Positions 2,862 to 38,400 of a stretch of DNA of 64,000 nt are shown one piece after another. Positions within the stretch are counted from its first letter, which is position 1; each line of letters starts with the position of its first letter. The position numbers and the translations under genes are program-made. This DNA comes from a virus (taxonomy: Duplodnaviria; Heunggongvirae; Uroviricota; Caudoviricetes), in IMG/VR virus record IMGVR_UViG_3300006201_000003, positions 64,095 to 128,094 of that record; one strand, given 5' to 3'. The notes below the pieces were generated by a model, which was not told the DNA's origin, made no database searches, and worked only from the letters and a program-made list of their open reading frames with translations.

Positions 2862-3389
2862 TCAGCCCAAATACTTTTTGAAAAATTCTTCCAATGTCAG
2901 CTTGTTTTGACGGGCAAGATCGACTGTGCAAGCGCATACATTTTTCTCAGTAGATACTCCAATCTCACTGACAAGATAAGAAATAATGTCTGGATATGTC
3001 CGCTCGCCAAAACATTGCTCAAAATCTTTTTCTGCTCCGTCGCATAATCCACGTTTATGGTCAGAGCAACTTTCTTTACACTCCTCAAGCCATAACAAAC
3101 GATTGCTTCCGTCCCAGGCAATCAATTTTTCGCCGTTGACAACATACTCTTGATCTGCGCAGCCAAGATTCGAGCCTTTGGCATATCTCCACCAGCCCCA
3201 ATCTTCTTTCCAATTATCATCTTTTACGGAACAGATTTTGTTAAAATCGTCCTCAGACAGTAGCCAGACTTGGTAATTTTCACGGTGACTATCTTTTGGG
3301 GGCTGGTAGTAATAAACGCATCTTGCAGACGCCAACTCAAGGCCATACACAGCGTTTGCAAACTTATCGCCCGCTAAAATTTCAACCAT
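2862..3389 (-). CDS. Hypothetical Cys/Trp-rich protein.
   Basis: 175-aa ORF. Confidence 0.5.
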   Translation of the reverse strand: MVEILAGDKFANAVYGLELASARCVYYYQPPKDSHRENYQVWLLSEDDFNKICSVKDDNWKEDWGWWRYAKGSNLGCADQEYVVNGEKLIAWDGSNRLLWLEECKESCSDHKRGLCDGAEKDFEQCFGERTYPDIISYLVSEIGVSTEKNVCACTVDLARQNKLTLEEFFKKYLG

Positions 3390-3734: not shown

Positions 3735-4259
3735 TCACTCCTTATACAATGTAATTTGATTGTTGAAGATAGTCTTTTGAACATCAATGATGCGTTGATT
3801 GGCCGAGCCTCGCCAAACCAATTTGCGGTCTGCAAGTTCTTGTTTGAATGGGCCGTCCACGACCACATCGCAGTCAGCCAATAGGAACTTTTGGTTCTGG
3901 TGCTGTATATCTCTACACGGCAAAGCAAATACATCTTCCCATAGAAATCCCGTCCACAACCATGTGGTCTTCCCTCTGTCTCGTATGCGGCGGCAGAGTG
4001 ACGCCAACGCCATCATACCGTCAGCATTCTGACACAGTGGATCTCCGCCGAGTATCGACAGACCAGATATGGTAGGATCTGATACCATAGCAATGATTTT
4101 CTCAGCCGTTTCGTCAGTAAAATGTTCTCCGTACTCAAAGTCTTGAGCTTCTGGATTAAAACACCCAGGACAGTGTAAATTACACCCACTCACGAAGAGG
4201 GAGGTGCGGACTCCCTCTCCGTTTGCGATGTCATAGTTGCGGATAGCAGCGTAGTTCAT
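3735..4259 (-). CDS. nrdG: Anaerobic ribonucleoside-triphosphate reductase activating protein (radical SAM).
   Basis: 174 aa; CNLHCPGC is the CxxxCxxC radical-SAM motif. Its ATG overlaps the nrdD stop (ATGA). Confidence 0.85.
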   Translation of the reverse strand: MNYAAIRNYDIANGEGVRTSLFVSGCNLHCPGCFNPEAQDFEYGEHFTDETAEKIIAMVSDPTISGLSILGGDPLCQNADGMMALASLCRRIRDRGKTTWLWTGFLWEDVFALPCRDIQHQNQKFLLADCDVVVDGPFKQELADRKLVWRGSANQRIIDVQKTIFNNQITLYKE

Positions 4260-6568
4260 TTGTCTCCACCAAGATGGACAAACCGCTCCGCAATTTCCTG
4301 TGTCCGGCCTTGGTTCCAGTCATTCAGACCGATGTAACCACAAGTGCGGCGAGCAATGTTCATCTTGTTCTTGTCAGTGTTTCCGCAGTTTGGACATTTC
4401 CAGATCAACTTTCCACGTCCGTCATCAACAACTTCGATTTCCTTATCCCAGCCGCACACCTGGCAGTAATCGGACTTTGTGTTGATTTCAGCATACATAA
4501 TGTTGTTGTAGATGTACTTCAGCACTGACAGCACGGCGGGGATATTGTCGGAGAGATTCGCAACTTCGATATAGCTGATTGCACCGCCAGGGGACAGTCT
4601 CTGAAACTGAGACTCAAATTTCAACTTATCAAAAGCGTTGATATGCTCTGTAACATGGACATGATAGGAGTTTGTGATATATCCCTTATCTGTGATCCCC
4701 TCAATCACACCGAAACGCTTTTGCAAACACTTGGCAAATTTGTACGTAGTGGACTCGATGGGTGTTCCGTAAAGAGAGTAGTCAATGTCCTCAGCTGCTT
4801 TCCACTGTGCGCACTTATCGTTCATATACTGCATGACTTTGAGTGCAAACGGCTCACCATCAGGATCAGTATGGCTCTTGCCAGTCATTGCCTTTACGCA
4901 CTCATAAAGGCCAGCATACCCAAGCGAAATTGTGGAGTATCCACCGTGTAGCAGCTTGTCGATTGTTTCACCTTTCTGCAAGCGGGCCAAAGCACCGTAC
5001 TGCCAGTGGATAGGGGAGGCGTCAGAAACTGTGCCAGAAAGCCGCTCATGCCGAACTTGCAATACCTCGTGGCACAGCTCCAAGCGTTCCTCAAAGATTT
5101 CCCAAAAAGTATCAAACAGTGCTTGGATATCATCGTGATCCTCGCAGACCTGCCAAGTATGAAGCGCACTTAACGCAACATCAGGTAAATTGATAGTCAC
5201 AACGCCCTGGTTAAATCGCCCATAGTATTTGGGTCTATCTGACTGATAGTTTTTTGCGTTTGCAATGTTATCCCAGCCATTACCAGAACGATCAGGGGTT
5301 AAGAAACTACGACATCCCATGCAGGTATAACAGTCACCGCTACCCTCAACTTCGCCCTTAGACAGTTTGTATTCACGCATCTTTTTCTCAGAAATGTAGT
5401 CAGGGACAAGCCGTTTTGCAGAGCACTCAGCGCACAATTCCGTCAGATACCAGTATGGAGAATCTTCGGTAATATTGTCTTCCTCCAGTACATAGATAAG
5501 TTTTGGGAACGCTGGTGTGACCCACACACCTTTTTCGTTTTTTACTCCCTGGTAACGCTGCCGCACAGTCTCTTCAATCACCAAAGCAAGATCTTTCTTT
5601 GTCTGCGGATCGCTTGTTTCGCCCAAATACATGAACACAGTGATAAATGGTGCCTGACCGTTCGTGGTCATTAGTGTAATCACTTGATATTGGATTGTTT
5701 GTACGCCCTTTTCAATATCTTTACGAACTCGCCGTTCAGTAGTACGTTCAACATATTGGTTATAACTATTTGAACCAACAGCCAAAGAAATTTCACCAGC
5801 TTTAATACCATCGTTGAGTTCTTGTATGACCTCTTCTCGGATTGCCTGACGGCTCACTTCGACAAATGGAGCAAGGTGTGCTAATGAAATGGACTGCCCT
5901 CCATATTGGTTAGAAGCAACTTGCGCAATAATTTGGGTGGCAATGGTGCAAGCCGTGCTAAAAGAGTGGGGCTTTTCAATAAGCGTTCCACTAATTACGG
6001 TGTCGTTTTGGAGCATATCTTCGAGATTGACAAGACAGCAGTTGTGCATATGCTGCACAAAATAATCACTGTCATGGAAATGCAGAATGCCCTCTTCGTG
6101 CGCTTTAGTAATTTTCTCTGGCAGAAGCAAACAATCTGTTACATCACGGCTTACCTCACCAGCAATATAATCCCGTTGTGTCGAAAGAATCATGGGATTT
6201 TTATTTGAGTTTTCCTGAATAACTGTTTCATTTGTGCCGTCCGCAATAGAGAGAATTTTGTTGTAAAGAGAGGTGGCATTGCGCAAAAGTTCATGCTCAT
6301 ACCGATACTTGATATACGCCACCGCAACGATGTACTCGTGCTCTTTCATCAGTTCAATTTCAACATCGTCTTGGATTTCCTCAACCGAAATTGCACGATT
6401 GCGCCGCTGATAACGGCTATACAAACGATTAGAAATTCTCTTGGAAATCTCGTCTTTATCACCTACGGAACTGAGCTTTTCAACTTCTGTAAACGCTTTA
6501 ACGATGGCGTTTGTAATCTTGCTCTTGTCAAAGCTGACCTCTGTACCGTTTCGCTTAATTACAACCAT
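4256..6568 (-). CDS. nrdD: Anaerobic (class III) ribonucleoside-triphosphate reductase.
   Basis: 770 aa; C-terminal CPNCG Zn-ribbon and the glycyl-radical motif RRTCGYIG. Confidence 0.9.
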   Translation of the reverse strand: MVVIKRNGTEVSFDKSKITNAIVKAFTEVEKLSSVGDKDEISKRISNRLYSRYQRRNRAISVEEIQDDVEIELMKEHEYIVAVAYIKYRYEHELLRNATSLYNKILSIADGTNETVIQENSNKNPMILSTQRDYIAGEVSRDVTDCLLLPEKITKAHEEGILHFHDSDYFVQHMHNCCLVNLEDMLQNDTVISGTLIEKPHSFSTACTIATQIIAQVASNQYGGQSISLAHLAPFVEVSRQAIREEVIQELNDGIKAGEISLAVGSNSYNQYVERTTERRVRKDIEKGVQTIQYQVITLMTTNGQAPFITVFMYLGETSDPQTKKDLALVIEETVRQRYQGVKNEKGVWVTPAFPKLIYVLEEDNITEDSPYWYLTELCAECSAKRLVPDYISEKKMREYKLSKGEVEGSGDCYTCMGCRSFLTPDRSGNGWDNIANAKNYQSDRPKYYGRFNQGVVTINLPDVALSALHTWQVCEDHDDIQALFDTFWEIFEERLELCHEVLQVRHERLSGTVSDASPIHWQYGALARLQKGETIDKLLHGGYSTISLGYAGLYECVKAMTGKSHTDPDGEPFALKVMQYMNDKCAQWKAAEDIDYSLYGTPIESTTYKFAKCLQKRFGVIEGITDKGYITNSYHVHVTEHINAFDKLKFESQFQRLSPGGAISYIEVANLSDNIPAVLSVLKYIYNNIMYAEINTKSDYCQVCGWDKEIEVVDDGRGKLIWKCPNCGNTDKNKMNIARRTCGYIGLNDWNQGRTQEIAERFVHLGGDK

Positions 6569-8340: not shown

Positions 8341-11300
8341 CTACACCACGTAATCATAACCAATCAAATACCAGTAGCCCGTGCGCTCCTGCCTCACATC
8401 AGAGGCATAAATTACATCGAAGCGTTTAAGTGGCTTTTTGTCAAAGAGCCGACTACGAACTGTCAGTCTGGAAGTCTTTCCGCTACCAATAGATCTGGTC
8501 TGAAGAGCATACCCCCAAACTTCCTTGTTTGCTTTACTCTTTAGTGGAAAAACATCCATAATAACAAGTTTGCGCCGATCTTCTTTCTTGTCGGTTGTCA
8601 AATCAATGTAACCCAAATTTTCAAGCTGATCCTGCATTTTGCTTTTCAAGTCAAAATCTTGGATGTGCATATCTCTGACTACTTGCTCCATATGCCGAAG
8701 AAGTCCTGGCATATCCGTAAATGTGTAACTTTTAGCTGTTGCACCATTTTTGGCAATGTCGGTAGCGTACTGTGACACGATTGCTTCAACTTGTGGAGTC
8801 AACTTTTCTTTGGATATTTTCTTCATGGTGCCGTTCTTGAAGAAAGAGAACATTTCTACCATGCGAAGTAACTCTTTTGCGTTGCCGTACTCAATGAAAT
8901 AGTCAATTTTGACAAGTATATCTCTTTGGCGTGTGTCCAGGTGCGTCCGCTCATTCATAAGCTGAAGCAATTCCATAAACGATTTTGGCTTACCAGTCTC
9001 AGCCAGTTCATACAGCTCGTTTGCAACATCGGCGTTCATATATTTGACAGAGCTGATTCCCTTAGCAATTACCTTTTCCTCCTTGTTAAGCAGGTACTTA
9101 TCCTTTGAAAATCCGAAACGAGGAGGCACGATCTTGATGCCATAGAGTGTCGCAAGTTCATTACCATTCTTCACATCTTCCTCACCATTGGCATTGTTGA
9201 GGTATGCGGTGATAAATTCGTATGGGTGGTAGTACCGTAGGTAAGCGCAAAGATAACCAATCATGCAATATCCAACTGAATGGTTATAGCCAAACATATA
9301 GCTGGAAGCATCGCTTATGATCTGCAAAAATTCTTTTGCTTCCTGTTCTGCAATTTCTCTGGGCTGTGGTGACTTTTCACAATACCCATTTAGGATGTCA
9401 GGCAAAATTTTCTCCAAGTCCTCTGGCTTCTTACGGGCGATGGTACGCCGTGTATTGTCGGCATCAGAACCAGAGAAACCACAAATTTGCTGTAAAAATT
9501 TGATAACGTCCTCTTGGTAAATTAGGTATCCGTTATTATCTTTCAACAGCTCATCAATAAGAGCAGATGGGTTCTTGTGCGGCTTATGCTGCATGAGATC
9601 ATCACGATAGGACGCACCAGACGGACGAAGTGCTGCCGTAATTAAACTCATGTCAAAAATACTATGTGGTTCGTATTGTTTGAGCATTTGGAAAGCGAAG
9701 TCACCCTCAAACTGAAAGATTCCAACCGGAGAGCGGAGCATATCTTTCCATACTGCTTCGTCATTCCAGTTAATTTCATGGGACTTTGGATACGGCTTCC
9801 CCATTAGCTCATAAGCGTCTTTGACAATCTCAATGTTCTTCAGTCCAAGAATGTCATACTTGACCAAACTAACATCATGCACGCACTCCATATCAATCTG
9901 CAAGATTTCTTTGCCGTCAGAAATAAAGGTGCCATAATTATCTCGCAGAGTGATTGGACTTGCCACAATGCCGGCTGGGTGCATTGACTGGGAGATTGCC
10001 ACATCAAGCAAGCCATCGTAGTAGTAGAAAACATCTGGGTATTTCTTCCGTGCCGCATCCTCGTCTGCCTCGAACTCTTTTTTGATCGTTGCGCTGATTT
10101 TGCCAACCCACGGGTTTTTAGCAAAAATCTTTTCGTTTTCTTCTTTCAGTTTACTGTACTCTTTGGTAAACTGTTTGACCAGTTCTGCACGTGGAATGTC
10201 TTTCATACGACTGGGCAACATCAGATTCCCAGCCTCATCAAAGCAGTATGCAGAGAAACCGTCCCGTACATCACCAAATCTGATGGTGATGTTTTCATTT
10301 TTCAACATTTCTAATGCTTTTCGGAACCCTTTTTCATCGTGCTGGTGTTCTTTATTCCACTTTACACCTAATGCACGACAAATCTCGTCAATACAGCCTT
10401 TTGACTTGATTGTGCCGATAGCAAGAATAAATGCGGTGCGCTCCTGCCCAAAACGGTTGATAATGTAGTCGTAGACTAAATCACGTTGAGAAGGGGAAAC
10501 GTCAATATCAATGTCTCCGATTTCTTTTCTGTCCTCATTGCAAAAACGGGAGAAAACAGTGTGCCATGTCTCTGGGTTAAGATCTGTCGTATTGGACACA
10601 TAGGCCACGCGGGAGCCGCCACAGGAGCCGCGGTTAAAACCAATCGGGATACCATTCTCTTTACACCATGTTACCAACTCAGACATGAACAACATGAAGC
10701 CGGACATATCAATTTTATCGAATACACGGCATTCTTCGGCAATCGCCTCTTTGAACGGTTCTACCTGTTCAGGTGTAATAGCACCATCTGCAATTTTCGA
10801 TTGCAAGTTGTTATCCAGCACCTTATGCAACACCTCTCTGTCACGATCACCATAAAGTGGCGGATACTTGAAAGACGTGTCCAACTCAAAGGACTCAACA
10901 GATGCCGCCATACGATTGGTATTTTCGATTGCCTCAAGATAGATGCTTTCTGGAATAGCATCTTGCTTGGCGAACATCGCTACCAATTCTTCGTATGACT
11001 TGTAGGTAAGATCAAAACTGTCTTCGTCAGCAAATTCAATATGCTTTGACAGTTGCATGATACTCCTACACTCTGCTTTGTATTTGTTGAGACTATGTGT
11101 ATCAGTACCAGCAATCAGCGGAATACGGTAACGCTGAGACATATCTACCAGATGACGGTTGTACGCAATTTGCTCTGGATGATCGTGCGGCTGGATTTCC
11201 AGATAGTCATAGTGCTTCAAAATGCGTTCATATATCGGATGTCGAATACTCATTTTATTGAGTGGAGAGGCGAGACAAGCACTTATTTTGATGACGTTAT

Positions 11301-11952
11301 CTGAAAGACCAAGAAATTCGTCAAATGAAATCCTGGGTTTATAGTAAAAGTGATCATCACAAGTAGACCGACTAATCAACTCGTTCATTTCCTGAAGGCC
11401 GGCATAATTCTTAGCAATTAGGATTGTATGGTAGTTGTCACGTACCTTGTGCATCCCAGCTTCCATCAATTCTGTAAATCGCCGTTCCGCATAGTCATCT
11501 GGTTCGCATTGTGTATCGTCTTGCGTAATCGAGCCTAAATCTGGTTCTTCTTGATAGTTTGCTCTTTCCATTTCGGCAAGCAGGCGTTCAGCAAGAGCTT
11601 TTTGTTCACGATCTCTCTGAGCAGCCTCTTCCATTACTTGCCGCTGTATCTCTTTTTTATCAGGTGGAACCAAGAGGGCTTCTGTCAAATAAACTTCACA
11701 ACCGTGAAGATATTTTAGACCAGCTTTATCACAAGCCATCTTTTTTTCGATCCACTGATAGATGTTTCCATGCTCAGTAAAAGCAATCGCAGATTGCCCA
11801 AGTTCGACAGCACGAGCAATATAGTCTGAGAATTTTGTTGCGCTGTCAAGCAGAGACAGTTCGGTATGCAGGTGGTATACGGTATAGTTTTTATCGCTCA
11901 TATTGATTTCTCCTATTTCACGAACCATATTTGTATCGTCAACAAAACTCAC
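8341..11952 (-). CDS. dnaE: DNA polymerase III alpha subunit-like replicative polymerase (DnaE family).
   Basis: 1203 aa; N-terminal PHP domain (YHLHTELS...FTEHGN), then polymerase-core length and composition. Confidence 0.85.
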   Translation of the reverse strand: MSFVDDTNMVREIGEINMSDKNYTVYHLHTELSLLDSATKFSDYIARAVELGQSAIAFTEHGNIYQWIEKKMACDKAGLKYLHGCEVYLTEALLVPPDKKEIQRQVMEEAAQRDREQKALAERLLAEMERANYQEEPDLGSITQDDTQCEPDDYAERRFTELMEAGMHKVRDNYHTILIAKNYAGLQEMNELISRSTCDDHFYYKPRISFDEFLGLSDNVIKISACLASPLNKMSIRHPIYERILKHYDYLEIQPHDHPEQIAYNRHLVDMSQRYRIPLIAGTDTHSLNKYKAECRSIMQLSKHIEFADEDSFDLTYKSYEELVAMFAKQDAIPESIYLEAIENTNRMAASVESFELDTSFKYPPLYGDRDREVLHKVLDNNLQSKIADGAITPEQVEPFKEAIAEECRVFDKIDMSGFMLFMSELVTWCKENGIPIGFNRGSCGGSRVAYVSNTTDLNPETWHTVFSRFCNEDRKEIGDIDIDVSPSQRDLVYDYIINRFGQERTAFILAIGTIKSKGCIDEICRALGVKWNKEHQHDEKGFRKALEMLKNENITIRFGDVRDGFSAYCFDEAGNLMLPSRMKDIPRAELVKQFTKEYSKLKEENEKIFAKNPWVGKISATIKKEFEADEDAARKKYPDVFYYYDGLLDVAISQSMHPAGIVASPITLRDNYGTFISDGKEILQIDMECVHDVSLVKYDILGLKNIEIVKDAYELMGKPYPKSHEINWNDEAVWKDMLRSPVGIFQFEGDFAFQMLKQYEPHSIFDMSLITAALRPSGASYRDDLMQHKPHKNPSALIDELLKDNNGYLIYQEDVIKFLQQICGFSGSDADNTRRTIARKKPEDLEKILPDILNGYCEKSPQPREIAEQEAKEFLQIISDASSYMFGYNHSVGYCMIGYLCAYLRYYHPYEFITAYLNNANGEEDVKNGNELATLYGIKIVPPRFGFSKDKYLLNKEEKVIAKGISSVKYMNADVANELYELAETGKPKSFMELLQLMNERTHLDTRQRDILVKIDYFIEYGNAKELLRMVEMFSFFKNGTMKKISKEKLTPQVEAIVSQYATDIAKNGATAKSYTFTDMPGLLRHMEQVVRDMHIQDFDLKSKMQDQLENLGYIDLTTDKKEDRRKLVIMDVFPLKSKANKEVWGYALQTRSIGSGKTSRLTVRSRLFDKKPLKRFDVIYASDVRQERTGYWYLIGYDYVV

Positions 11953-12003: not shown

Positions 12004-13977
12004 TTATTGATCGCTTGTTCTTCCGAATACCTCATCTTCACTGTCATCCTCTACCAGCTGCTGAGGTGGGAATGGAAGCGGAGTTGTGTATCGCCTCTTG
12101 TCCCAAGCGTATTGATAATCCAGTTCAGCCTCGGTTGTGAAAAACCGTCTGGACGGGCGATCATAAAATGTTTCAATGCTACGGCTTTCATAGCCAGTCA
12201 ATCGGTCTTTCAAGATGTCGAAGATAACATCCGCTTTAATTGGCTTAACTTTCCATCCACTTCCATTGAGCTTTGGGACGCCTTGGCGGTCAGACTCTTG
12301 CACACGGTAGAGGCTGATAATACGATGAGCAAGATCAATAATGGCCGAAATGCCCTGCACATCCATCTTGCTCAACCGACGCATCATGTCAATTTTGTGC
12401 GGATGTACTACCAAGATTACAACGACATTGAACTTCACAGCAAAAGCAATCAGATCCATAATAAAATCAGCCTGTTTGTCGTATTTATTGTTGTCGTTGC
12501 TCTCCAAGTTAATAGCTGTCAGGTTGTCAAGAATCAACAGCTTCGTCCCATACTTCCTTACCGAGTCCTCCATAGACTTCAAAAGGTCTGCTGACTTATT
12601 GGATTCTCCGTCCTGCCGAATATAGAGTCGCCCTCGGTAAAACTCGCTAATCGCTCTTTTTGCTTCCGGCGTCACCTTATAGAAGATAGAATCGTTGTAC
12701 TGACATTCCTTTACATTTCTCTGCCCCGCAAAGATGAAGTTCAACCAGTTTTTTGCCTGGAAATTTGGTAACTCACCAGAGAACAGATAGGCATTTTCAC
12801 CTCGATCCAGGCACTGACAAATCACTTGGTTCAAAAATGAGGACTTACCACTACCATTGATGCCTGTCACAATGTTTAGTGTTCCGTAAAACAGTTTCAT
12901 TAGATATCGGTCAAGGTTAGGAAGCCCTGTCGGAATGCCGTCAAGAGCGTCAAGGTCAATATCCTCAATATCAGAGAAGTCAACCACACCAGGAACAGGT
13001 GAGTCTTTGGCATCCAGAATAATTTCCATAACCTTTTCTTTCCCATAATAATAGAGGACTTCGTTGAGATCGTTTACGGAGTATTTGGTATTTGCGGCTT
13101 CATCCACATAAAATTGTGGGACTTCAACCACCTTTGTCCGCCAGCTGCCTAAACGGTAAATACACTCTTTCTGCATTTTAAGGCCAGCCTCATCATTGTC
13201 AGAACAGATAATAATGGAATCGAATTGTTCAAGAAAATCCCAGTTTTCTTCAATCCAATGAAAATTTGTGCTTCCAAGAGGAACGGATACGGCATTTGTA
13301 AAACCAGACTCGATTGCGGATAGACAATCTGGCTCACCTTCGCAGATCAACAAAGGGACAGTTGTATTGATACGATTCATATTAAACAGAAGCGGGGTTG
13401 TGTCTGCACCTTTTTGACACCAGCATTTGTTCTCGCCTTTTTTGACTTTTCTGGACGGGCGATATTTCACCATTGTCAACACATCGTTGGTGTCGTAGTA
13501 ATTGAAAACGGTGTTCCCCTCACTGTCCTGGCGCACATCGGCATAGTCTATCGTCTGTTGGCTAATCTTACGCTTCTGGAAGTATTCGTACACACGAGAC
13601 TTATCATCGCATATAACCTCTTTGGGGTATTGATACTGCCGTCGTGTCTTTACTCCAAGTTCACCGAAAGAATATGGCATACCGGCCAGATCGAAAAGTT
13701 TGCGGCACGCCTGGGCATATGTCATTCCTTTATACATCAGCACATCAAGAATGTCATAACTACGGGAACACGCCCCAAAGCATCTAAAATTGAATGCTTT
13801 TTTGTTATAAATGAAACTGGCGTGATCCTCTTGGTGAAACGGGCAGCAGCACTTCATATCACGCTCGTCATAATCAACAATGCCAAGCTCTTCTATGATA
13901 ATTCGAGCGTTATCATCACCGAGTTTTTCCTTGGCCTGCATAATTGCATCACGGTCGATTTGCACAGATAAAATCAC
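12004..13977 (-). CDS. Bifunctional DNA primase / DnaB-like helicase (T7 gp4-like).
   Basis: 657 aa; N-terminal CHC2 zinc finger (CCCPFH...C..C), TOPRIM (ICEGEPD) and a C-terminal Walker A (GINGSGKSSF). Confidence 0.85.
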   Translation of the reverse strand: MILSVQIDRDAIMQAKEKLGDDNARIIIEELGIVDYDERDMKCCCPFHQEDHASFIYNKKAFNFRCFGACSRSYDILDVLMYKGMTYAQACRKLFDLAGMPYSFGELGVKTRRQYQYPKEVICDDKSRVYEYFQKRKISQQTIDYADVRQDSEGNTVFNYYDTNDVLTMVKYRPSRKVKKGENKCWCQKGADTTPLLFNMNRINTTVPLLICEGEPDCLSAIESGFTNAVSVPLGSTNFHWIEENWDFLEQFDSIIICSDNDEAGLKMQKECIYRLGSWRTKVVEVPQFYVDEAANTKYSVNDLNEVLYYYGKEKVMEIILDAKDSPVPGVVDFSDIEDIDLDALDGIPTGLPNLDRYLMKLFYGTLNIVTGINGSGKSSFLNQVICQCLDRGENAYLFSGELPNFQAKNWLNFIFAGQRNVKECQYNDSIFYKVTPEAKRAISEFYRGRLYIRQDGESNKSADLLKSMEDSVRKYGTKLLILDNLTAINLESNDNNKYDKQADFIMDLIAFAVKFNVVVILVVHPHKIDMMRRLSKMDVQGISAIIDLAHRIISLYRVQESDRQGVPKLNGSGWKVKPIKADVIFDILKDRLTGYESRSIETFYDRPSRRFFTTEAELDYQYAWDKRRYTTPLPFPPQQLVEDDSEDEVFGRTSDQ

Positions 13978-17125: not shown

Positions 17126-17424
17126 TGTTTGACCACCTTCCAGACCGCAGTATTTCGAGTTGTGATAAGACTACGCCGTTTACCGACAACCTCAACCTTG
17201 CCGTCTTCTTTCAACTCTGTCAGACGTGGGCGAGTGAAGTTGGGATCAATGTACGGAATTTTCCCATCTTTAAGGAGCTGTTGTGCAACCTCTTCTGCTG
17301 TCATACCACCAGGATCGCCGTTTTCAAGTATGTTCAAAATGAGAGCCTTGCGGCTATCCCGTTTCGGTTTCACATTCTCATATGCTTCACGGCGATTTTT
17401 CAGTGTGATGCTCAATCGTATCAT
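17122..17424 (-). CDS. Putative winged-helix DNA-binding protein.
   Basis: 100-aa basic ORF. Confidence 0.4.
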   Translation of the reverse strand: MIRLSITLKNRREAYENVKPKRDSRKALILNILENGDPGGMTAEEVAQQLLKDGKIPYIDPNFTRPRLTELKEDGKVEVVGKRRSLITTRNTAVWKVVKH

Positions 17425-17511
17425 TCCTCTCTATCCGACAAATGCCGGTTTCTGTTGCTGTAATAGTTGGACAAATCCGCTACCACCCCCACAGCGCACT
17501 CGATAAAACCT

Positions 17512-19116
17512 TTACGGGTCGCCTGTCTGATCCTTACTTTCTCCATAAACAACCTCCGGCGGATTGCCATGATGCTGTGCTCTAAGTGTCGGGCAGTCTT
17601 GCCTAAGAGTACATTTCTTGTTGAGCCGTCCCTGTGGATCAATTACACCCTTGACCTTATACCATCCCGTCTTTGCTCCGCCACCGCCAGCTTCAGCTTT
17701 CAGAACACGGGCAACAGTTTCACTATCATATATTCGGTTGGCATCTCCGTTGTAGTCGTTGATATATCCAATCTGACGAAGATCATTGTCTTCGATGCTA
17801 TGATTTTGTTCGTCGCTAATTGGAGCATTATCAAATGTGGATAGCGCCTTTTCAAAAGCTCCAATGCCAGAAAAGAAAGAGCCAACCACAATATGCTCGA
17901 AAAGATACGGCATAGCCTGGTACAGTTCTCCCAGAATGGCACAAAGCACATCCACCACAATAGAGTTGCCGGCTTGCTTGTAAAGCTGGGAGCCACTACG
18001 ATCATTACCGCCATACAAGTTCTCATTCATAGCAGACTGAGCCTTGTAGAAATCTTCGTCGGAAAAACCCATGAGTCGCCAACATTCTTTTTGCGTGAGC
18101 TTCCGTACACGAAACGCTGGCTCTTTGATTCCAGATTCAATCACTCTCTTGTCCCCCCCCCATCAATAGTGCGAATTGTGCCGCAGACGCCATCTTTGAA
18201 GAAACGAACGCCCTCATCACATCGTTGTTCACATACGATTTTCATGTTTTTCAACTACCCCTGTCATTTGTTGATTTCCGAAACCTTTGTAGTCACGGGC
18301 CAGTAATGTTAAAGCTGTATCGCAGTACCCATCAAACTGGGTTCCTTTCTTACTCAGTTTTGCACCGGCAAGTGAGCAAGTCCCAACAGTGGCGGTCTGT
18401 GGAGCCTCTTCCACTGGTACGGACGGTATTACTGATTTGTCTGGCTGGGGGGGGGCGATCATGGCTGCTACCTTATCATTCGATAGGTAATAACGCTCGT
18501 CAACTTTCTCATCCAGCATATCTACCAGAGCACGCTTCAGTGGGATAGGAGTAGGGAATTTGAACTTTCCGTTATCCAGATCTTTTCTGATAATGACACA
18601 ATAGACACGCTCACGGTTCTGTGGAATCCCATAGTTTTTCGCATTCAGAACCTGCCAGTAGACATTGTAACCGTAATCTTCCAGTTCCTTGACAAAAAGA
18701 TCGAATGTGGAATGAAAACGAGAACCAACGATGTTTTTCACGTTCTCATAAATAGCAAAGCGCGGCTTCTTCTCTCTGAGGAAACGCAACCATTCAGCCA
18801 AAAGTGAAGAACGAGTTTTCTCGATATCTGTTGATCCGCAACTGGGGCAATGGTCACGCTTAGTATAGTGAGCTTCTAAGGGGTTGTAGGTGTGGCCGCA
18901 ATGCTTACAAGTCCATGCAGCCCCCCCCTGTTTGCCCGCTACACTGAAGTCCTGACAAGGGCTTCCACCGAACATGGTATTAAAGTCTGGCACCATCTTT
19001 TCATCGGCTTTGGTAATATCGCCAATGTTAAGTGCTGGATCAACACCATGCACGGCACAGTAACTTTCTGCTGCGTACTTATCAAACTCGCAGAAAAGGG
19101 CAGTTTTGAAATCCAA
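17512..19116 (-). pseudogene. C5-cytosine DNA methyltransferase-like gene, disrupted and rearranged.
   Basis: ORF1 (18229..19116, TTG start) begins at motif II (EFDKYA) with no motif I, then has motif IV GGSPCQDFSVAG, VI ENVKN, VIII PQNRER and a Zn-ribbon TRD. The continuation before motif IX (GTIRTIDGGG, aligning to HhaI ...SAYGGG) reads only in the +1 frame and needs G10 at the C9/G9 tract 18153-18161. ORF2 (17512..18144, GTG start) carries IX (RKLTQKECWRLMGF) and X (YKQAGNSIVV), then an extra motif I-like VVGSFFSGIGAF. Confidence 0.7.
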
Positions 19117-19132
19117 GGTTTACTACCTCCTT

Positions 19133-19183
19133 ATTATAGCGTATTTTCCCTCGCTTGTCAATGATTTTATTCGTTGCTAATGA
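19133..19183 (-). promoter_or_regulatory. Sigma70-consensus promoter (TTGACA-17-TATAAT) preceded by the leader-element copy TTAGCAACGAATAAAATCA, upstream of the MTase-like gene.
   Basis: The reverse complement reads TTAGCAACGAATAAAATCATTGACAAGCGAGGGAAAATACGCTATAATAAGGAGGTAGTAAACCTTG. Confidence 0.65.
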
Positions 19184-22052: not shown

Positions 22053-22904
22053 TTAGACGCTGGAAGCGGTTCGGAGACTTTTCCAAATGAGCGCCAAAGG
22101 CACAAAAGACACAGCCAGTACGATGCTCTCCTGTTGTCGTCCACCCCCCCCATCAGTCTTGACAATTTCACCATAGACTGGTGCATACGGAACTTTGTAA
22201 GTATAAAGATATTCAAGCACATCAGCCTCTGTCCAAAACGACATTGGCTGAGAACTTGGCTTTTTACCAGAGAAAGCATTGCATCCTTGCCGCAACCATG
22301 TAGATCGGCGGGATCTGCTCTCCTCTGTCATTGTGGCAATAATAGGATATCTGCCAGTTTCTTTTGCGTACTTCTTCATAGGTTTCTTCTTCATCACATC
22401 ACAACATCTGGAAGAAACCTTAAATGGTGCGTTCAGCAAATAGCACCACTTCTCACAGTTAAACTCTGATGGAGTCCCGTTACTCCGCATAATCTCTCCA
22501 TGCAGTTCTCTCCATCGAAACGATCCAGGCTTATGACCATACTCAACTGTGTTTGCTACACGCTTAGAGACAACAGGGTATCCATATACCTCAATGACCT
22601 TACGGAAATTCATTTCTGGTCGTACAACAGTCACGTTTTCACGGCTCATAGCAAACTGTCTGACCTCTGGAAATTCAAGACCAGTATCCGAAAACACAGC
22701 TGGTACATCTGGATAAATGCGCCTCACGATGTCAAGAAGTACAGTTGAGTCCTTCCCGCCTGAAAACGCGACATACACTTGCCCGTCATAGTGCTGATAC
22801 CATTCAATAATGCGGGCCGTGGTAATCTGGATTTTACGAGAGAGAGGCAGACGCTGCATCTCTTCCAGCTGTTCTTTGCTATGCAAAACGTCCGCCTCCT
22901 CCAT
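22053..22904 (-). CDS. PAPS reductase-like PP-loop ATPase, probably frameshifted at a homopolymer.
   Basis: AFSGGKDST PP-loop. After the G8/C8 tract at 22144-22151 the called frame gives a low-complexity tail. The frame reached with G9 reads GCVFCAFGAHLEKSPNRFQRLKITHPKLWNYC...EYIGVSCE, a plausible Cys-containing C-terminus ending near 21952. Confidence 0.65.
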   Translation of the reverse strand: MEEADVLHSKEQLEEMQRLPLSRKIQITTARIIEWYQHYDGQVYVAFSGGKDSTVLLDIVRRIYPDVPAVFSDTGLEFPEVRQFAMSRENVTVVRPEMNFRKVIEVYGYPVVSKRVANTVEYGHKPGSFRWRELHGEIMRSNGTPSEFNCEKWCYLLNAPFKVSSRCCDVMKKKPMKKYAKETGRYPIIATMTEESRSRRSTWLRQGCNAFSGKKPSSQPMSFWTEADVLEYLYTYKVPYAPVYGEIVKTDGGGGRQQESIVLAVSFVPLALIWKSLRTASSV

Positions 22905-22986: not shown

Positions 22987-23415
22987 TTACTCCGTACCGT
23001 CTGTCAGTTGGGGTGACTCACCAGGAGCGGGAAGCTGAGGAGTCGCCGTTCCAAGCCAATGGTTAAGTACCTTGTTGTAGGTATTGTCATTACCCATAAA
23101 ACGCTTGAGCATAGCAGCCATCAGACCAGTCTCAGCACTGAACGTGTCTCCAGGCTGGCACTTCACCACCGTCTTGGAACCATCGTCCCAGTAGACGATA
23201 GTAGCTGGGCCGTTGAAAATCACACGCTCAACATTCGGTAGAGCAGGGTTATTCCGCATATGACGAACAGCGGCGTTCCATCCAGCGGTGAAACTGTTTT
23301 GATCAAGTCCAACCGTTACCTTCTTGGGGGGGGTATACGAACCCAACAAGCGAAGCAGATCGGCGTTTACAGGCTGCACCCTAACGCTCCACGGACTGAT
23401 GTGATTGTCTTTCAT
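22987..23415 (-). CDS. Hypothetical protein.
   Basis: 142-aa ORF; contains an in-frame G8 tract at 23325-23332. Confidence 0.5.
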   Translation of the reverse strand: MKDNHISPWSVRVQPVNADLLRLLGSYTPPKKVTVGLDQNSFTAGWNAAVRHMRNNPALPNVERVIFNGPATIVYWDDGSKTVVKCQPGDTFSAETGLMAAMLKRFMGNDNTYNKVLNHWLGTATPQLPAPGESPQLTDGTE

Positions 23416-23444
23416 TGCAATTTCCTCCTTAAATTCAGTGTTTT

Positions 23445-24383
23445 TTAGTGTGCGTGCAGGTCACAATCGTGCAAAATCATAACCTGCGACCAGATATCTT
23501 CACCAAGCAAATCCTTAAATTTTCTCTCAGTTTTGCTCGGATGATCTGACTTTTCCACAGCGAATGGTGCCATATGCCAGCGAATCAAAAGCGCAACCCT
23601 CAGCTGGTCATCCTTGGACAACAAATCAGCGGTGTGAGCAAAACTCTCATAGGCACCAACACGCTCGTGGTTGTAATAGTGGGCAATATCTGTGGGATTT
23701 CCCTTGCTGTCATGGAAAACCTTTGTAAACTCTTTTCCAATATCATGGAGTGCAACTGCTCGGCCAAGAGGAATATCGTTTGCCATATCAGAGTAGTTCT
23801 TGTCAAAATATTCATAGGCCGTCAACATATGCTGTCCAACCGTAAACTCATGGTGAGGGTTGTCGTGCTCCATACCAGCAAGGCGACTCAGCAGGAAGTT
23901 GATGTCGCCAATAAATGGGTCTACATTTTCGATCCAGATATCATCCCACCCCTCGGCTTTCATCGGAATGTCGATATTCTGATACATCCGATGAATTACA
24001 TTCTCAGGCACAGTGCGTTCACGATTGGCGTTATTCTCTACGCATTTAGAATACGGGGTTACCATAAAAACACAGACGGTTTTAAGGCCAGGAATATGCA
24101 GTCCTTTCACCTGTTGCAGAAAAACACGACGGCGCTTATAACTGATATTGGTAGCGTCATATACCACACTCAAGCCAATTTGCAAATCACGGATTACACG
24201 GTCGTGAAGAGTTTGAAACACCAATTCCTGCTGACTCTGATCATCCACATTGTTCAAAAGTTCCTCACGAATTGCGTCGCTGGAGTGGATGACCGCATGG
24301 GACAATTTGTTTTCCGCATACCAAGACTTTCCGCTTCCAGGAAGTCCAACCAGCATGAAGAAATATTGCGTTGACAGGTTCAA
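23445..24383 (-). CDS. Polynucleotide kinase (P-loop) fused to an HD-domain phosphohydrolase.
   Basis: 312 aa; Walker A GLPGSGKS; C-terminal HD motifs (LHDIGK ... HDCDLH). Confidence 0.75.
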   Translation of the reverse strand: MNLSTQYFFMLVGLPGSGKSWYAENKLSHAVIHSSDAIREELLNNVDDQSQQELVFQTLHDRVIRDLQIGLSVVYDATNISYKRRRVFLQQVKGLHIPGLKTVCVFMVTPYSKCVENNANRERTVPENVIHRMYQNIDIPMKAEGWDDIWIENVDPFIGDINFLLSRLAGMEHDNPHHEFTVGQHMLTAYEYFDKNYSDMANDIPLGRAVALHDIGKEFTKVFHDSKGNPTDIAHYYNHERVGAYESFAHTADLLSKDDQLRVALLIRWHMAPFAVEKSDHPSKTERKFKDLLGEDIWSQVMILHDCDLHAH

Positions 24384-29905: not shown

Positions 29906-30023
29906 TACGGCAGGTAGGATTTGAACCTACGATTGGCGGTTTGGCTTTTTACCTTGCTGTTAGTGAAACTGTAACATTTCACATTTCATTGACCGCTGTG
30001 TTTAACCACTTCACCACTACCGC
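29906..30023 (-). ncRNA. tRNA-like RNA with ~45-nt insert in the anticodon loop (element 1).
   Basis: T arm GTAGG-TTCAAAT-CCTAC; a 7-bp acceptor pairs (with 2 GU); anticodon stem GCGGT/ACCGC flanks a 51-nt loop containing the hairpin GTGAAA...TTTCAC and the conserved TCACTAACAGCAAGGT. No encoded CCA. Confidence 0.5.
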
Positions 30024-30028
30024 ATAGA

Positions 30029-30143
30029 TGCCAGGGGTGGGACTCGAACCCACGACCACGGGATTAAAATTCCTTAAAACATTGCTGTGAGCGTTTCATA
30101 AGATACGCATTGATACGTGCTCTATCCACTGAGCTACCCTGAC
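30029..30143 (-). ncRNA. tRNA-like RNA with insert (element 2).
   Basis: Acceptor GTCAGGG/CCCTGGC, D arm GCTCAGTGGATAGAGC, T arm GTGGG-TTCGAGT-CCCAC; a ~40-nt extra segment carries the hairpin GCGT...ACGC plus TCACAGCAATG. No encoded CCA. Confidence 0.5.
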
Positions 30144-30356: not shown

Positions 30357-30470
30357 TGCGGAGAATAGGACTCGAACCTACGACACATAGCCTCCATTTA
30401 ACCTTGCTGTTAGTGAGAACGAAATGTTCCACATTTTATACCATCGCTCTACCGACTGAGCTATCTCCGC
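30357..30470 (-). ncRNA. tRNA-like RNA with insert (element 3).
   Basis: Perfect 7-bp acceptor GCGGAGA/TCTCCGC, D arm GCTCAGTCGGTAGAGC, T arm GTAGG-TTCGAGT-CCTAT; anticodon stem ATGGT/GCTAT (GU pairs) around a 48-nt loop with the hairpin GTGGAAC...GTTCTCAC and CTCACTAACAGCAAGGT. Confidence 0.55.
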
Positions 30471-30525: not shown

Positions 30526-30806
30526 CCCATAGTTTCATATTTCAAAGGAGCCAGTCAAATATATTTCTGTTTGGATGCGAACTTAGGGCTTGTCTCGTAC
30601 TTTATTCATTGCAGAGCCTCCTCAACTGCGTTCCGATTCTGCCGCACTCATGTGGGCGGATCACATTTTGAAACCTTGTGGGGCATCGCCCCCCCCCACT
30701 TGTTGCAACCGGTCTACATTTACAGATACAACTTCTTAAATGGTCTGGTCACGTGCTCTATTCATGGCACGTACCTCCTTCCTAAGAATCAGTATGGTGG
30801 CTATTA

Positions 30807-30923
30807 TGGGAACTGACGGAGTTGAACCGCCAAGGAAAAGATTTCAAGTCTTTTTTTATAATGAAGATTGCTGTATGTGTCCGCCACCCGCTACACAGAT
30901 TGGCCTGACCACCGGACGTTCCC
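30807..30923 (-). ncRNA. Possible fourth tRNA-like RNA with insert (element 5).
   Basis: T arm GGCGG-TTCAACT-CCGTC; acceptor 6/7 pairs (GGGAACG/AGTTCCC); an internal ACAGCAATC motif follows the hairpin TGTGT...ACACA. Length 117 nt like the others. The D arm is unclear. Confidence 0.3.
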
Positions 30924-31011: not shown

Positions 31012-31101
31012 TGGCGGAGTGGGTGGGACTCGAACCCACACACCCTTTCGGGCTACTGACGGTTTAGCAAACCGTTGTCTTACCATTAGACTTACCACTC
31101 C
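31012..31101 (-). tRNA. tRNA-Ser(GCU), type II with long variable arm, CCA encoded.
   Basis: Acceptor GGAGTGG/CCACTCC, anticodon arm ACGGT-TTGCTAA-ACCGT (anticodon GCT), long V arm, T arm GTGGG-TTCGAGT-CCCAC, and 3' GCCA. Confidence 0.85.
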
Positions 31102-32638: not shown

Positions 32639-32710
32639 CTCTTACCCCCCCCATTTGAATACATTGATTTTATTCGTCATTATACTAACCTTAAAGTGGC
32701 TTCTGCCACT

Positions 32711-35456: not shown

Positions 35457-38400
35457 TCAGTTAATTGTCTGCTCTCCCCATGAGATATGGAAGTTTCCGT
35501 CTTTGTCCATATCACGAGACATAAGTAATCCCATCAAATCATAGTCAACACCAAAACGTGTGTATATCTCATCCAGGTCAACATCCTCCCCTTTCATAAA
35601 CAGATTCAATTTCTCTTTTGCTAACACCATTTGCATCTGATTTGACTCAATACTTCCAGAATAGGTTACAAAGTAGATGTCTTTCCAATCCGTAGAGGTA
35701 AATCGGACAAATCTCATATAGAATTGACTCATCCGTGCGTTATTGAAGTGCAGTTCAGGTATGATAACCTTGTTCACAAACTCGAAGTTGACAGAGGACG
35801 GGAGACACTGTTGAGTACAGAGCAAAATCCCGTTTCTGCTCTCTTTTAACGTCTTCTTCAGTTTCCGCCGTCCGGCTAATGTGGTAGTCGATCCTGTCAC
35901 CACAAACAGTTTTCGATCTGGAAAACGATTACGAATTGCGTCCGCATACGCCTCTACAACTACCTTGTGACGCACACCAACAACGGCCACCTCATTAGGC
36001 CAGCCAGCCAACATATCACAGACTTTACGAATTTTCACAGGTTCCAGATCGCTGTCATATTCATCTACTGTGTTTGGAGCGGCAGAAATACGCAACAGTA
36101 AAGTAATCTGCTGAATCAACGCCATCATGCTATCCTTGCGACTATTCCCAGTCAGGGCAAAGTACCGCTGCCGAATAGAGTAGAACTCTTCAACAGCTTT
36201 TTTGTAGACTTCCCGTTCCATAGGAGAGAATGAGACGGTAGTTTGGTGTATACGTCTAATTTCCCGTCCTGTGATCTCAGCAAATGTCCGTGTAATAACG
36301 GAGTAGGACAAGAGTTTGTTCAGTGCATCCGCATTGAATATATCCTGATTTTTCTTACCCACTCCAAAAACTGTGATCTTCTCCGGCAAATGAGACTCCG
36401 AAAATAGTGTATATCCAGGCTTATAAGCGGGAATCGGGCATCCGAAATAAGGGTTGTTGCTAAAATTCAGAAATTCCTCACCATTCGAGTCTTTTTCATA
36501 CCAATAAAGATTCTCAGCCCATGAAAGCATATTGTGAGAATTGTTATAGAGCAGTTCCAGTTGTGGAGCACTCTCCGCAATGTTATTTCTTGTGATGGTG
36601 CCAGTCATTTCCAGCTTAAACTGCACACGACGGAAACAGGACAACATAGCCTTTGTACGCTTGCTGTTAGGGTTCGTGATTTCATCACTCTCATCAAATA
36701 CAAGACACACCTTTTGGTTACGCTGCTTGATATGGCGCTTGATCTGTTTCTGATACTTGGAAACCATATTAAGGGTAATAATAACAAACTCTCCATCCTG
36801 CACAGCGTCCAGATCAGAAAGGCGGCGAATCATACGATAGGGAATAGGGCGTCCATCAATACTGTAATTAGGTAGCACCAAATCCCAGTTATTCTTGATA
36901 GAGATGGCCGTGGATACTACCCAAACATTTCTTGCTCCCTGATAAATCATCCGATATCGTCCAGTGATGATGCCGGCCAGCGTTTTGCCGCCACCTTGCT
37001 CCCATTGTAGCAGATGGTAGTGTTTCTGAAGAATGAGGTTCAAATCGTGCTTCTGTGTATCATTTGGGCAAATCAATTCTTCATTTTCAGCGTCGTAGAT
37101 AGCGAACTCTTCCAAATAGCGGGAAATGTCCGCCCGTTCTATCATTTCAGAGAATGGCATTGTCTCCCGTTCATAGTCACGCTGCTTGCGGCGAAGCATT
37201 CGCACATACTGTCCGTACTCCTGTGGTGGGTTCCCAGTTTCCTCCATGCTGACTACAATATCTGTGATAGGAACTGGCTGTTTCATCGTATCCGACATGG
37301 AGCGACGAGCTTTGGAGCTGTATCCCTTGTAAACAAGGTTATAATCCTGCTTGACCAACCGCACAATGTCTTGGCTTGGCTTCTTGTTCTGAGAGCGGAT
37401 CACACGCCGCAGATAGGCCAGCACTTTTGCCTCTGTAATGCGCACCTTTGCCCATTCCTCAGCTTTCATATCCTTTGGCTGTTCCTGGTGCTGAAATTTG
37501 TAAAGGTACTCTTGGCACTTAGCGTATTTCTCTACCAGTTTAGGATTTTTCCTAATATGGTACAACATCTTCCGAACATTGTACTCAAAAGTGTTAGAAC
37601 TTCCACCCAAAGAGGCCAGCTTGATACGGGCGCTGTTCTGTTGTTTCAACATTTTTGCAGGCGCTATGATTTTTTCCTTAGTATAGTCCAACAGATCGAC
37701 GGCGTTATCCAAGTTGTTCATCTGGGCGTCACAGGCCAACCGATAAGAGCCGCTGGTTTCCTCACCATCCATTCGTTTCTGCCAAAACATCACTTTTGTT
37801 AAATAATTGGTTACACCAAGATGTTTGAATGCACCAGCCATAATTTCAATTTGTCCCAAAAAAGAAAAGTGCTTCTCCATTTCTACGATTTTCTGCTTAT
37901 CCATGTAGTCATCGGATAGGAACTGTGCTGGGACAACAATCGCCATAATACCCATAGGCTTCAACAACTCTGCCGCTTTCATGCAATAGTACATTTGACT
38001 GATATACTCAGTCCCATCTACATCCCATTTTAGGTTGAATGGAGGATTACCAACCACATAGTCGAAGCGCATATCGGGCTGGTAGAAACGGATATCCCGA
38101 TGTTCCAAGTTTGCGGTGGGGTAGAGGTAATGCGCAACCTTATGAGATTTGATATCCAGCTCGCAACCGTAGAAGTTGGCCTCCAGCGGCACGAAGTTAC
38201 AGAAGTTTGCCATTCCAGAAGTAAGGTCGGCCACCGTTTCATCCAGTGCGGGAGAAATGGCTTCCATGATGAACTGGCATAGGGCAGGCGGCGTAAAGAA
38301 CTGTCCGTTCTCAATCTCTTTCTTGGCCTCCGAAAACTCATGGTAGTTTGCGAAGTCAGAGCGCTTCAAGCCGTGTAGTCCACCGTCACCAGTGTAGGCG

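Follow-up and report, generated by a model that had tools for sequence, protein, structure and literature searches.

Phase-variable methylases are well known in bacteria. In the Type III mod phasevarions and the Helicobacter Type II genes, slippage of in-frame repeats switches a methyltransferase or truncates its specificity domain, and a poly-G tract in the hsdS gene of Neisseria NgoAV reportedly changes specificity. Hypermutable homopolymers occur also in phage genes, namely, as poly-G contingency tracts of Campylobacter phage receptor-binding proteins (Sorensen 2021) and in the contingency loci T2 agt and T4 rIIA, of which T2 agt encodes a DNA-modification enzyme used in defence evasion (PMC12633550). 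In this work, we analysed a methylase locus in a stretch of 64,000 nucleotides (nt), hereafter the window, which corresponds to positions 64,095 to 128,094 of the IMG/VR virus record IMGVR_UViG_3300006201_000003. The locus is most probably a permuted and split DNA (cytosine-5) methyltransferase (C5-methyltransferase) of a temperate Oscillospiraceae phage with fast-changing G/C tracts, i.e., a contingency locus, which the window presents with the third tract (tract 3) in an out-of-frame phase.

The natural permuted C5-methyltransferases described to date are all opened in the variable region, with motifs IX and X ahead of motifs I-VIII ("Type H"; Slaska-Kiss et al. 2018, PMC5944983). Other topologies were made only by engineering and were reported absent from REBASE (PMC5944983). 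Permutants of M.MpeI opened near the N-terminus are active, and its engineered fragments [TRD-IX-X-I-II] and [III-VIII] (TRD, target recognition domain), named Mpe[280-61] and Mpe[62-279], complement each other to give activity (PMC5944983). Like M.BssHII, M.Alw26I, M2.Eco31I, M.Esp3I, and M2.BsaI, the enzyme of our locus has motif X ahead of motif I, a permutation that is permitted by the close N- and C-termini of the fold. Unlike the M.BssHII type, its family is opened between motifs I and II, and only motif I and helix A have moved to the C-terminus. With the N-terminus between motifs I and II, and motifs II-VIII coming first, the locus is therefore not a Type H member. Like M.AquI, a natural split enzyme with alpha and beta subunits, it appears to be made as two polypeptides divided within the variable/TRD region, and the composition of Mpe[280-61] and Mpe[62-279] is almost that of ORF2 and ORF1, its two main open reading frames (ORFs). 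Unlike M.AquI and the M.MpeI fragments, the locus adds the permutation, overlapping genes in +1 frame, and a variable TRD content at the start of ORF2.

The enzymes of the Bacillus phages SPR, phi3T, rho11s, and H2 are likewise phage C5 enzymes with several tandem TRD-like modules. However, these enzymes are single chains in canonical order without hypermutable tracts, whereas our locus has modules after motif I, each with a tract. Work by Trautner and Noyer-Weidner is said to have found inactive "pseudo-domains" in such multispecific Bacillus phage enzymes, which are comparable to a decayed module (module C) of our locus. The phase-variable methyltransferases of bacteria are chromosomal, come from pathogens, and usually have a single tract, whereas the present C5 enzyme belongs to a prophage of gut Clostridia and has 3-7 tracts. 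Compared with the Campylobacter phage, T2, and T4 loci, which yield mixed progeny, it differs in enzyme class, in residing in a temperate gut phage, in having many tracts per gene, and possibly in acting module by module. A literature search found no description of a phase-variable phage C5-methyltransferase or of a natural permutation opened between motifs I and II, and absence from that search is no proof that they are undescribed. Permuted, split, and repeat-tract phase-variable methylases are each of a known kind, and they appear to be combined here in a gut prophage.

A circularly permuted C5-methyltransferase

The methylase locus spans positions 19116-17421 of the window, and all of its features are on the minus strand:

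19133..19161, minus: sigma-70-type promoter, TTGACA-17 nt-TATAAT, 12/12 match to consensus
~19125-19132, minus: ribosome-binding site AAGGAGG, 5' of ORF1, read directly from the sequence
18229..19116, minus: ORF1, 295 aa, TTG start, with motifs II, IV, VI, and VIII and TRD module 1 (TRD1)
18921..18928, minus: tract 1, G8 on the coding strand, the GG of AGKQGGA just past catalytic motif IV; in-frame length G8
18829..18915, minus: zinc-ribbon insertion (WTCKHCGH...CPSCGS; CxxC...CxxC), a gap in the M.HhaI alignment at residues 92/94
18447..18455, minus: tract 2, C9 on the coding strand (IAPPQ), between motif VIII and TRD1; in-frame length C9
18141..18245, minus: 5' part of ORF2 in +1 frame, with TRD module 2 (TRD2; MKIVCEQRCDEGVRFFKDGVCGTIRTIDGGG); a 34-aa mini-ORF in the window
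18137..18232, minus: third-frame ORF of 31 aa, whose GTG (18232) overlaps the ORF1 stop (GTGA)
18153..18161, minus: tract 3, G9 on the coding strand (C9 on the plus strand); in-frame length G10
17512..18144, minus: ORF2 body, 210 aa from GTG 18144, which overlaps the mini-ORF stop (GTGA)
18111-18064, minus: motif IX (RVRKLTQKECWRLMGF) in ORF2
17988-17944, minus: motif X (QLYKQAGNSIVVDVL; YKQAGNSIVV) in ORF2
17889-17842, minus: motif I (VVGSFFSGIGAFEKAL; FFSGIGAF) in ORF2
17778-17653, minus: TRD-like module A in ORF2
17652-17545, minus: TRD-like module B in ORF2
17421..17546, minus: ORF3 remnant in +1 frame, TRD-like module C (MEKVRIRQATRKGFIEC...), with its own GGAGG and ATG, from alignment with contigs L021 and L010

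An earlier note on this DNA had proposed that ORF1 starts at motif II behind a perfect promoter and carries motifs IV, VI, and VIII and a zinc ribbon. All of this is readable in the sequence: the N-terminus is motif II (FCEFDKYAAESY), and direct reading and alignment with M.HhaI gave PCQDFS (motif IV), YENVKN (VI), QNRER (VIII), and the end of TRD1 (TALTLLARDYKGFGNQQMTGVVE). The zinc ribbon has weak Pfam zinc-ribbon matches and Cys residues that are invariant across 50 homologues. The ORF1 protein, found identical on 9 contigs, lacks motifs I, IX, and X. Its match to PF00145 (E=3e-48) covers profile positions 80-211 only, and positions 273-322 are matched by the ORF2 body. Downstream of motif X, ORF2 contains a motif I, as the note had seen, but not the motif II-like segment that it had placed there; instead, an acidic linker is followed by the TRD-like modules A and B, the former aligned by eye with the M.HhaI TRD (GERIYSTRGIAITLSAYGGGIFAKTGGY). 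Five TRD-like modules (T1, T2, A, B, and C) are recognisable, and module types are swapped among relatives. With motifs IV, VI, VIII, I, and X all present, the locus is a predicted DNA (cytosine-5) methyltransferase. A second methyltransferase downstream was considered and rejected; motifs II-VIII are not repeated, what lies downstream is TRD-like, and each motif occurs in exactly one copy.

When the C-terminal piece of ORF2 (..FFSGIGAFEKALSTFDN) was placed ahead of ORF1 (DFKTALFCEFDKYAAESY..), a PDB sequence search aligned this un-permuted construct with M.HhaI residues 17-92 as one colinear segment, from LFAGLGGFRLALESCGAE--CVYSNEWDKYAQEVY through GFPCQAFSISGKQKG, with a 2-residue gap at the joint. 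The motif I of ORF2 matches M.HhaI residues 17-30 in it. The break in the chain therefore lies between motif I/helix A and motif II. The Pfam score of the construct rose from ~199 to 211 bits, with the motif I stretch absent from the displayed table. The same permuted order is common to all 50 aligned homologues (53-70% identity), in which the residues S-F-S-G-G-A-E of the C-terminal motif I are invariant, and it is found in intact single chains (P0006, 394 aa; P0003, 509 aa; P0002, P0004, P0027, and P0055). In a search of 1.84 billion representatives, 146 clusters at 50% identity (E<=1e-10) contained the junction of motifs X and I. An AlphaFold model of P0006, which is 65% identical to the window protein, has a predicted TM-score (pTM) of 0.81, with a C-terminal strand (363-368) and helix (371-386) at per-residue confidence (pLDDT) of ~90-95. 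Its best fold match by Foldseek is M.HhaI (E ~1e-18), which concerns the overall fold only, the permuted strand position being invisible to Foldseek. Taken as a whole, the locus is predicted to encode one C5-methyltransferase with the motif order II-VIII, TRD, IX, X, I.

A gene split within the variable region

The earlier note had read two compensating frameshifts into the locus, of which only one is real. At the ORF1/ORF2 junction, an ATG or TTG in +1 frame overlaps the end of ORF1 in 57 of the 58 relatives that have a recognisable TRD1 end. The ORF1 stop lies 4-20 codons past ..TGV, the ORF2 start is typically 5-26 nt upstream of that stop (in the window, ATG 18245 is 14 nt ahead of it), and a Shine-Dalgarno GGAG ahead of the start is provided by the T-G-V codons. 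There are at least six different junction sequences among the relatives and no shared slippery motif. The TRD modules at the N-terminus of ORF2 differ by phage (MKIVCEQR.., MSKRYIIPAAIRGRY.., MVQKKILRYERTPYAKQIRK.., ..NPQRGRVYDPSG.., and MNNVIFSTPPVSYCIDANYYKG..), and in one contig (L022) a natural ORF2 opens directly at motif IX without a TRD.

Since this overlap is kept in 57 of 58 relatives, the enzyme is likely split: the frame change from ORF1 to ORF2 reads as a conserved gene boundary, neither a mutation nor a conserved slippery site, and the two products, each translated on its own, would be divided in the variable region, in the manner of M.AquI. Homologues with the same two-ORF organisation, which the note had set against switching, are thus found for this junction but not for tract 3. 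The junction of ORF2 and ORF3 (module C) is also +1, with its own GGAGG-ATG.

Hypermutable G/C tracts

In the window, the MKIVCEQRCDEGVRFFKDGVCGTIRTIDGGG segment ends just beyond the G9 run of tract 3, and one additional G would link it to DKRVIES... of ORF2. Consistent with this expectation, which the earlier note had raised, the segment is continuous with the ORF2 body in contigs with G10, and the resulting intact ORF2 has 244-247 aa (a 247-aa gene is called in L001, L002, and L003). About a dozen contigs underlie the tract 3 statistics. G10 was found in L001, L002, L003, L006, and L021, G9 in the window, L004, L005, and L088, and G8 in L087, L091, L092, and L093; these contigs are otherwise 94-100% identical, as expected for the slip-strand phase of a phase-variable methyltransferase that the note had suggested. 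In the G8 phase, the third-frame ORF reads on into motifs IX-X-I as a 239-aa ORF, and a 239-aa gene with a 4-nt overlap with ORF1 is called in L092 and L093. Contigs with an identical ORF1 (G10: L001, L002, L003, and L006; G9: L004 and L005) have 0-7 substitutions relative to the window over up to 6 kb. Over 6 kb, L001 and the window differ by a single indel, located at tract 3, and by 0 substitutions; three contigs that are 100% identical carry G9. A search of metagenomes for a pattern that allowed the gap around tract 3 to vary gave no match, and the plain pattern gave only two contigs and one IMG/VR contig. The four TGA codons to which the note had drawn attention in the ORF1 frame are present, but the significance given to them was not upheld, as this stretch appears to be an out-of-frame reading of TRD2. 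A recoding of stop codons was rejected for the same reason, the frame being the wrong one for a conserved coding module.

Two more tracts, overlooked in the earlier note, are located within ORF1 (G8 at 18921-18928 and C9 at 18447-18455). At C8, tract 2 shortens ORF1 to 228 aa without TRD1, and this is the state of L091 and L021. Among 66 relatives, tract 1 is G8 in 40, G9 in 12, G7 in five, G6 in two, and absent in seven, with frame breaks at query residues 61-66 in tblastn alignments. In the same set of 66 loci, tract 2 is C9 in 28, C8 in 23, C10 in three, C7 in four, and of other kinds in four. Some tblastn alignments bridged short out-of-frame stretches (the window itself came out in one frame), and frames were therefore re-derived by three-frame reading and motif maps. 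With phasotypes written as the lengths of tracts 1/2/3 (in-frame state 8/9/10), the close clade has 8/9/9, 8/9/10, 8/8/10, 9/8/8, 8/8/8, 9/9/8, and 8/9/8. A look-up via a neighbouring gene, which is unbiased for the methylase state, gave 8/9/10 (twice), 8/8/8, 9/9/8, and 8/9/8; 8/8/10 and 9/8/8 came from other close contigs.

The abundance of such runs in the window is itself unusual. Under an order-2 Markov model, 9 G/C runs of at least 8 bases were observed against 0.10 expected (max 1 in 100 simulations), a ~90-fold enrichment, and runs of 6-7 bases numbered 1 against 4 expected. In 44 pairs of loci with at least 99% identity (179 kb aligned), we counted 477 substitutions, 69 tract indels, and 9 other indels; 69 of the 78 indels thus fall in G/C tracts, and about one-third of the tract comparisons between near-identical loci differ. 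This variation is common to assemblies from JGI, ENA, Logan, and IMG/VR, and the tracts are present and variable in isolate genomes, including one complete genome. Across 80 IMG/VR loci and 68 genome loci, relatives at ~70% identity or above have 3-7 G/C tracts, mostly of 7-10 bases and at conserved positions, and distant relatives (~50% identity) are mostly without tracts. The tracts occupy the same codons down to ~71-78% amino-acid identity of ORF1, and they are still kept in the comparisons with L007 and L010, in which synonymous divergence is at or beyond saturation. GGG accounts for only 12% of Gly codons. Mapping of 25 representative loci placed one tract within or beside every TRD-type module, and one more past motif IV. 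The G8, C9, and G9 runs thus lie inside the reading frames of ORF1 and ORF2, where frame breaks of relatives coincide with them. With length polymorphism far above background and maintenance against codon bias, tract 3 is a true hypermutable tract.

Not every module in the window retains its tract. Module C is decayed by a 56-nt deletion between GGATTTGTC repeats (the same loss is seen in L001), and its G tract is broken by a G-to-T change (GGGGGTGG). In module A, the GGGG of the window is encoded by mixed codons (ggc ggt ggc gga), and relatives carry a G7-G9 tract there. Because the module C tract is interrupted and the module A codons are mixed, some switches may have been locked or lost in the window strain.

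Six more G/C runs of 8-9 bases lie outside the methylase locus, at 387-394, 22144-22151, 23326-23333, 30689-30697, 32645-32652, and 60378-60385. Among their settings, one is ~30 codons before the stop of a gene resembling phosphoadenosine phosphosulfate (PAPS) reductase, one is in a 142-aa ORF, one is 7 nt upstream of a 55-aa ORF, and one is non-coding between tRNAs. Only 30689-30697 is variable (G9 in five, G8 in one) among 5-7 close relatives, and 387-394 and 60378-60385 are beyond the compared region. On the minus strand, an A6 run at a gene boundary (23441-23446) is A5 in 3/10 close relatives, and an A7 run in the tRNA region (30851-30857) is A6 in 1/7; G/C runs are therefore not quite the only ones to vary in length.

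Selection on the coding segments

The ratio of nonsynonymous to synonymous substitution rates (dN/dS) was computed against relatives after normalising tract lengths, each segment in its own frame. It ranges from 0.03 to 0.17 over all segments:

ORF1 core: 0.03-0.05
TRD1: 0.07-0.17
TRD2: 0.03-0.09
IX-X-I: 0.04-0.14
Linker and modules A and B: ~0.10-0.14, from the L007 and L010 comparisons, as closer relatives differ at only 2-3 sites there

These values point to strong purifying selection in every segment, also downstream of out-of-frame tracts.

A probable contingency locus and its alternatives

The contingency locus that we favour would work as follows. ORF1 would supply the catalytic core and TRD1, ORF2 would supply TRD2, motifs IX, X, and I, and modules A and B, and a vestigial ORF3 would hold module C; the overlapping genes would be translationally coupled. 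The tracts would slip during replication, with each one-base change shifting the reading frame, and several phasotypes would therefore coexist in a phage population. With every tract in frame (G8/C9/G10), the products of ORF1 and ORF2 would come together as an active enzyme, with phage DNA and possibly also lysogen DNA as its substrate. In the window, tracts 1 and 2 are in frame and tract 3 is one G short; TRD2 would therefore be cut off as a 34-aa peptide, and motifs IX-X-I could be produced only by re-initiation at the overlapping GTG 18144. Without re-initiation the enzyme would be off, because ORF1 alone lacks motifs I and X, which bind S-adenosylmethionine (AdoMet). The switch would likely serve to hedge bets where hosts vary in their methylation-sensitive and methylation-dependent restriction.

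Several observations weigh against this explanation. A full-length ORF2 is present in only ~12/57 relatives, and both ORF1 tracts are in frame in only 17/66; under a simple all-or-none switch, most genomes would therefore have the enzyme off, which fits poorly with a gene that appears to be under strong purifying selection. The tract-length differences are those seen between assemblies, and three other G/C8 tracts in the window are invariant in 5-7 close relatives. The role of TRD-like modules placed after motif I also seems unexplained, at a position that in the M.HhaI fold is presumably far from the DNA cleft.

Part of this difficulty would be eased if the tracts were module-specific switches, with tract 1 as the master, tract 2 attaching or removing TRD1, and tract 3 attaching or removing TRD2, and with IX-X-I always translated by termination-reinitiation. 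We regard this arrangement as possible but not likely. In each of the 25 mapped loci, every TRD-type module has its own tract in or beside it, and purifying selection acts on all segments even though one or more tracts are out of frame in most genomes. An ORF over IX-X-I exists in all three tract 3 phases (from ATG 18245 at G10, GTG 18144 at G9, and GTG 18232 at G8), with each start overlapping the preceding stop, and a stop/start overlap after tract 3 (GTGA, TGATG, or TAATG) is found in 10/10 sequence types, in addition to the L022 ORF2 that starts right at motif IX. These overlaps in every phase, together with L022, suggest that the tracts may toggle individual recognition modules. However, re-initiation is predicted from sequence, the overlap is formed by a Val codon that belongs to a conserved RV(I/M)E peptide, the 10 sequence types do not count as independent cases, and other module types are without a comparable start near the tract; module-by-module specificity is supposition. 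At its fullest, such a locus would be a combinatorial epigenetic switchboard, in which slippage changes which DNA sequences the phage methylates and the AdoMet-binding half is translated in every phase, a proposal that we likewise consider possible but not likely.

If frames were bridged at the RNA or ribosome level, either because the transcribing polymerase slips along G/C runs or by a programmed +1 frameshift where ORF1 meets ORF2, then a full-length protein would be made whatever the tract length. Runs of 9-10 identical bases can make RNA polymerase slip, and the ORF1-to-ORF2 and ORF2-to-ORF3 junctions are both +1. However, slippage of bacterial polymerases is weaker on G/C than on A/T runs, the junctions share no slippery motif and each of the six or more sequences has a start codon and a Shine-Dalgarno sequence, and the length variation is seen directly in DNA, all of which make bridging improbable. 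Still less probable is that G9 and the other length differences are homopolymer errors of sequencing or assembly in a real gene with fixed tracts and a continuous ORF2. Long G/C homopolymers are error-prone in sequencing, the differences are known from assemblies rather than reads, and the G9 and G10 contigs stem from one run of consecutive JGI sample numbers. Against this stand the rate itself, with ~1/3 of tract comparisons differing compared with only 9 other indels in 179 kb, the recurrence of the variation in JGI, ENA, Logan, IMG/VR, and cultured-isolate assemblies (one of them complete), and the G9 in three contigs of 100% identity; errors would also leave the tract conservation against codon usage and the ~90-fold enrichment unexplained. 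The decaying pseudogene of the earlier note, a rearranged or fused double methyltransferase gathering frameshifts, is the least credible. Decay is evident in module C of the window (the 56-nt deletion and broken tract), and some tract is out of frame in most relatives. However, there is one copy per motif, colinear with M.HhaI once un-permuted; the permuted order is a family trait, found in 50/50 homologues and intact in single chains such as P0006 and P0003; and dN/dS is 0.03-0.17 in all segments. The indels are confined to the tracts rather than scattered and are therefore reversible.

Host and genomic context

The close relatives of this phage are prophages in Dysosmobacter segnis BX15, Hominicoprocola fusiformis CLA-AA-H269, Clostridiales bacterium CCNA10, and metagenome-assembled genomes (MAGs) of Oscillospiraceae, and one close contig is labelled human gut metagenome. 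A search of the locus DNA against 50,697 GenBank phage records gave no match. The window encodes an ImmA/HTH (helix-turn-helix) lysogeny pair, ERF, SSB, a DnaE-type polymerase, a primase-helicase, and NrdD. On the minus strand, 8341-11952 is a DnaE-type DNA polymerase III alpha subunit (PHP, NTPase, and finger domains), 12004-13977 a primase-helicase fusion, and 4256-6568 an anaerobic ribonucleotide reductase NrdD; a replicase owned by the phage could bear on tract slippage.

Beside the ImmA/HTH module, a 1027-aa ORF (35457-38540, minus) has an N6-adenine methylase domain (N6_Mtase / Eco57I-like) and a ResIII helicase domain, and the phage may therefore have, besides the C5 enzyme, a large gene for DNA modification or a restriction-like function. 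A small N6-adenine methylase (NPPF/NPPY motif) is located upstream of ORF1 in the homologues P0008, P0009, and P0051, and in L010 upstream of nt 3001; gene callers fuse it with ORF1 in those relatives because there is no stop between them. One of these fusions has an LPPPPV stretch, which may be another C tract. The family homologues P0031, P0034, and P0089 are probably intein-containing versions because they have Hint_2 / intein-splicing domains. Three Rfam tRNA matches on the minus strand (43-50 bits; 29906-30023, 30029-30143, and 30357-30470) are 114-118 nt long, ~40 nt over the normal length. ARAGORN calls none of them, and a normal tRNA-Ser (GCT) adjoins at 31012-31101. These matches may be tRNAs with insertions or introns.

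Implications

The locus is an apparent natural case of a topology opened between motifs I and II and then split, which had earlier been only engineered and was reported absent from nature. With a prophage clade of common gut Oscillospiraceae carrying a DNA-modification gene of 3-7 tracts, bet-hedging by phages would reach beyond a few model and Campylobacter phages and include temperate phages of the gut. Lysogens are in culture, namely, Dysosmobacter segnis BX15, Hominicoprocola fusiformis CLA-AA-H269, and strain CCNA10. Should the tracts switch methylation or its specificity, there would be effects on phage host range, on prophage-driven change of the host epigenome, and on the reading of "frameshifted" methylase genes in metagenomes. 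If the switchboard were true, one prophage genotype would give rise to many methylation patterns, which may allow the phage to cross hosts with different restriction and methyl-dependent defences.

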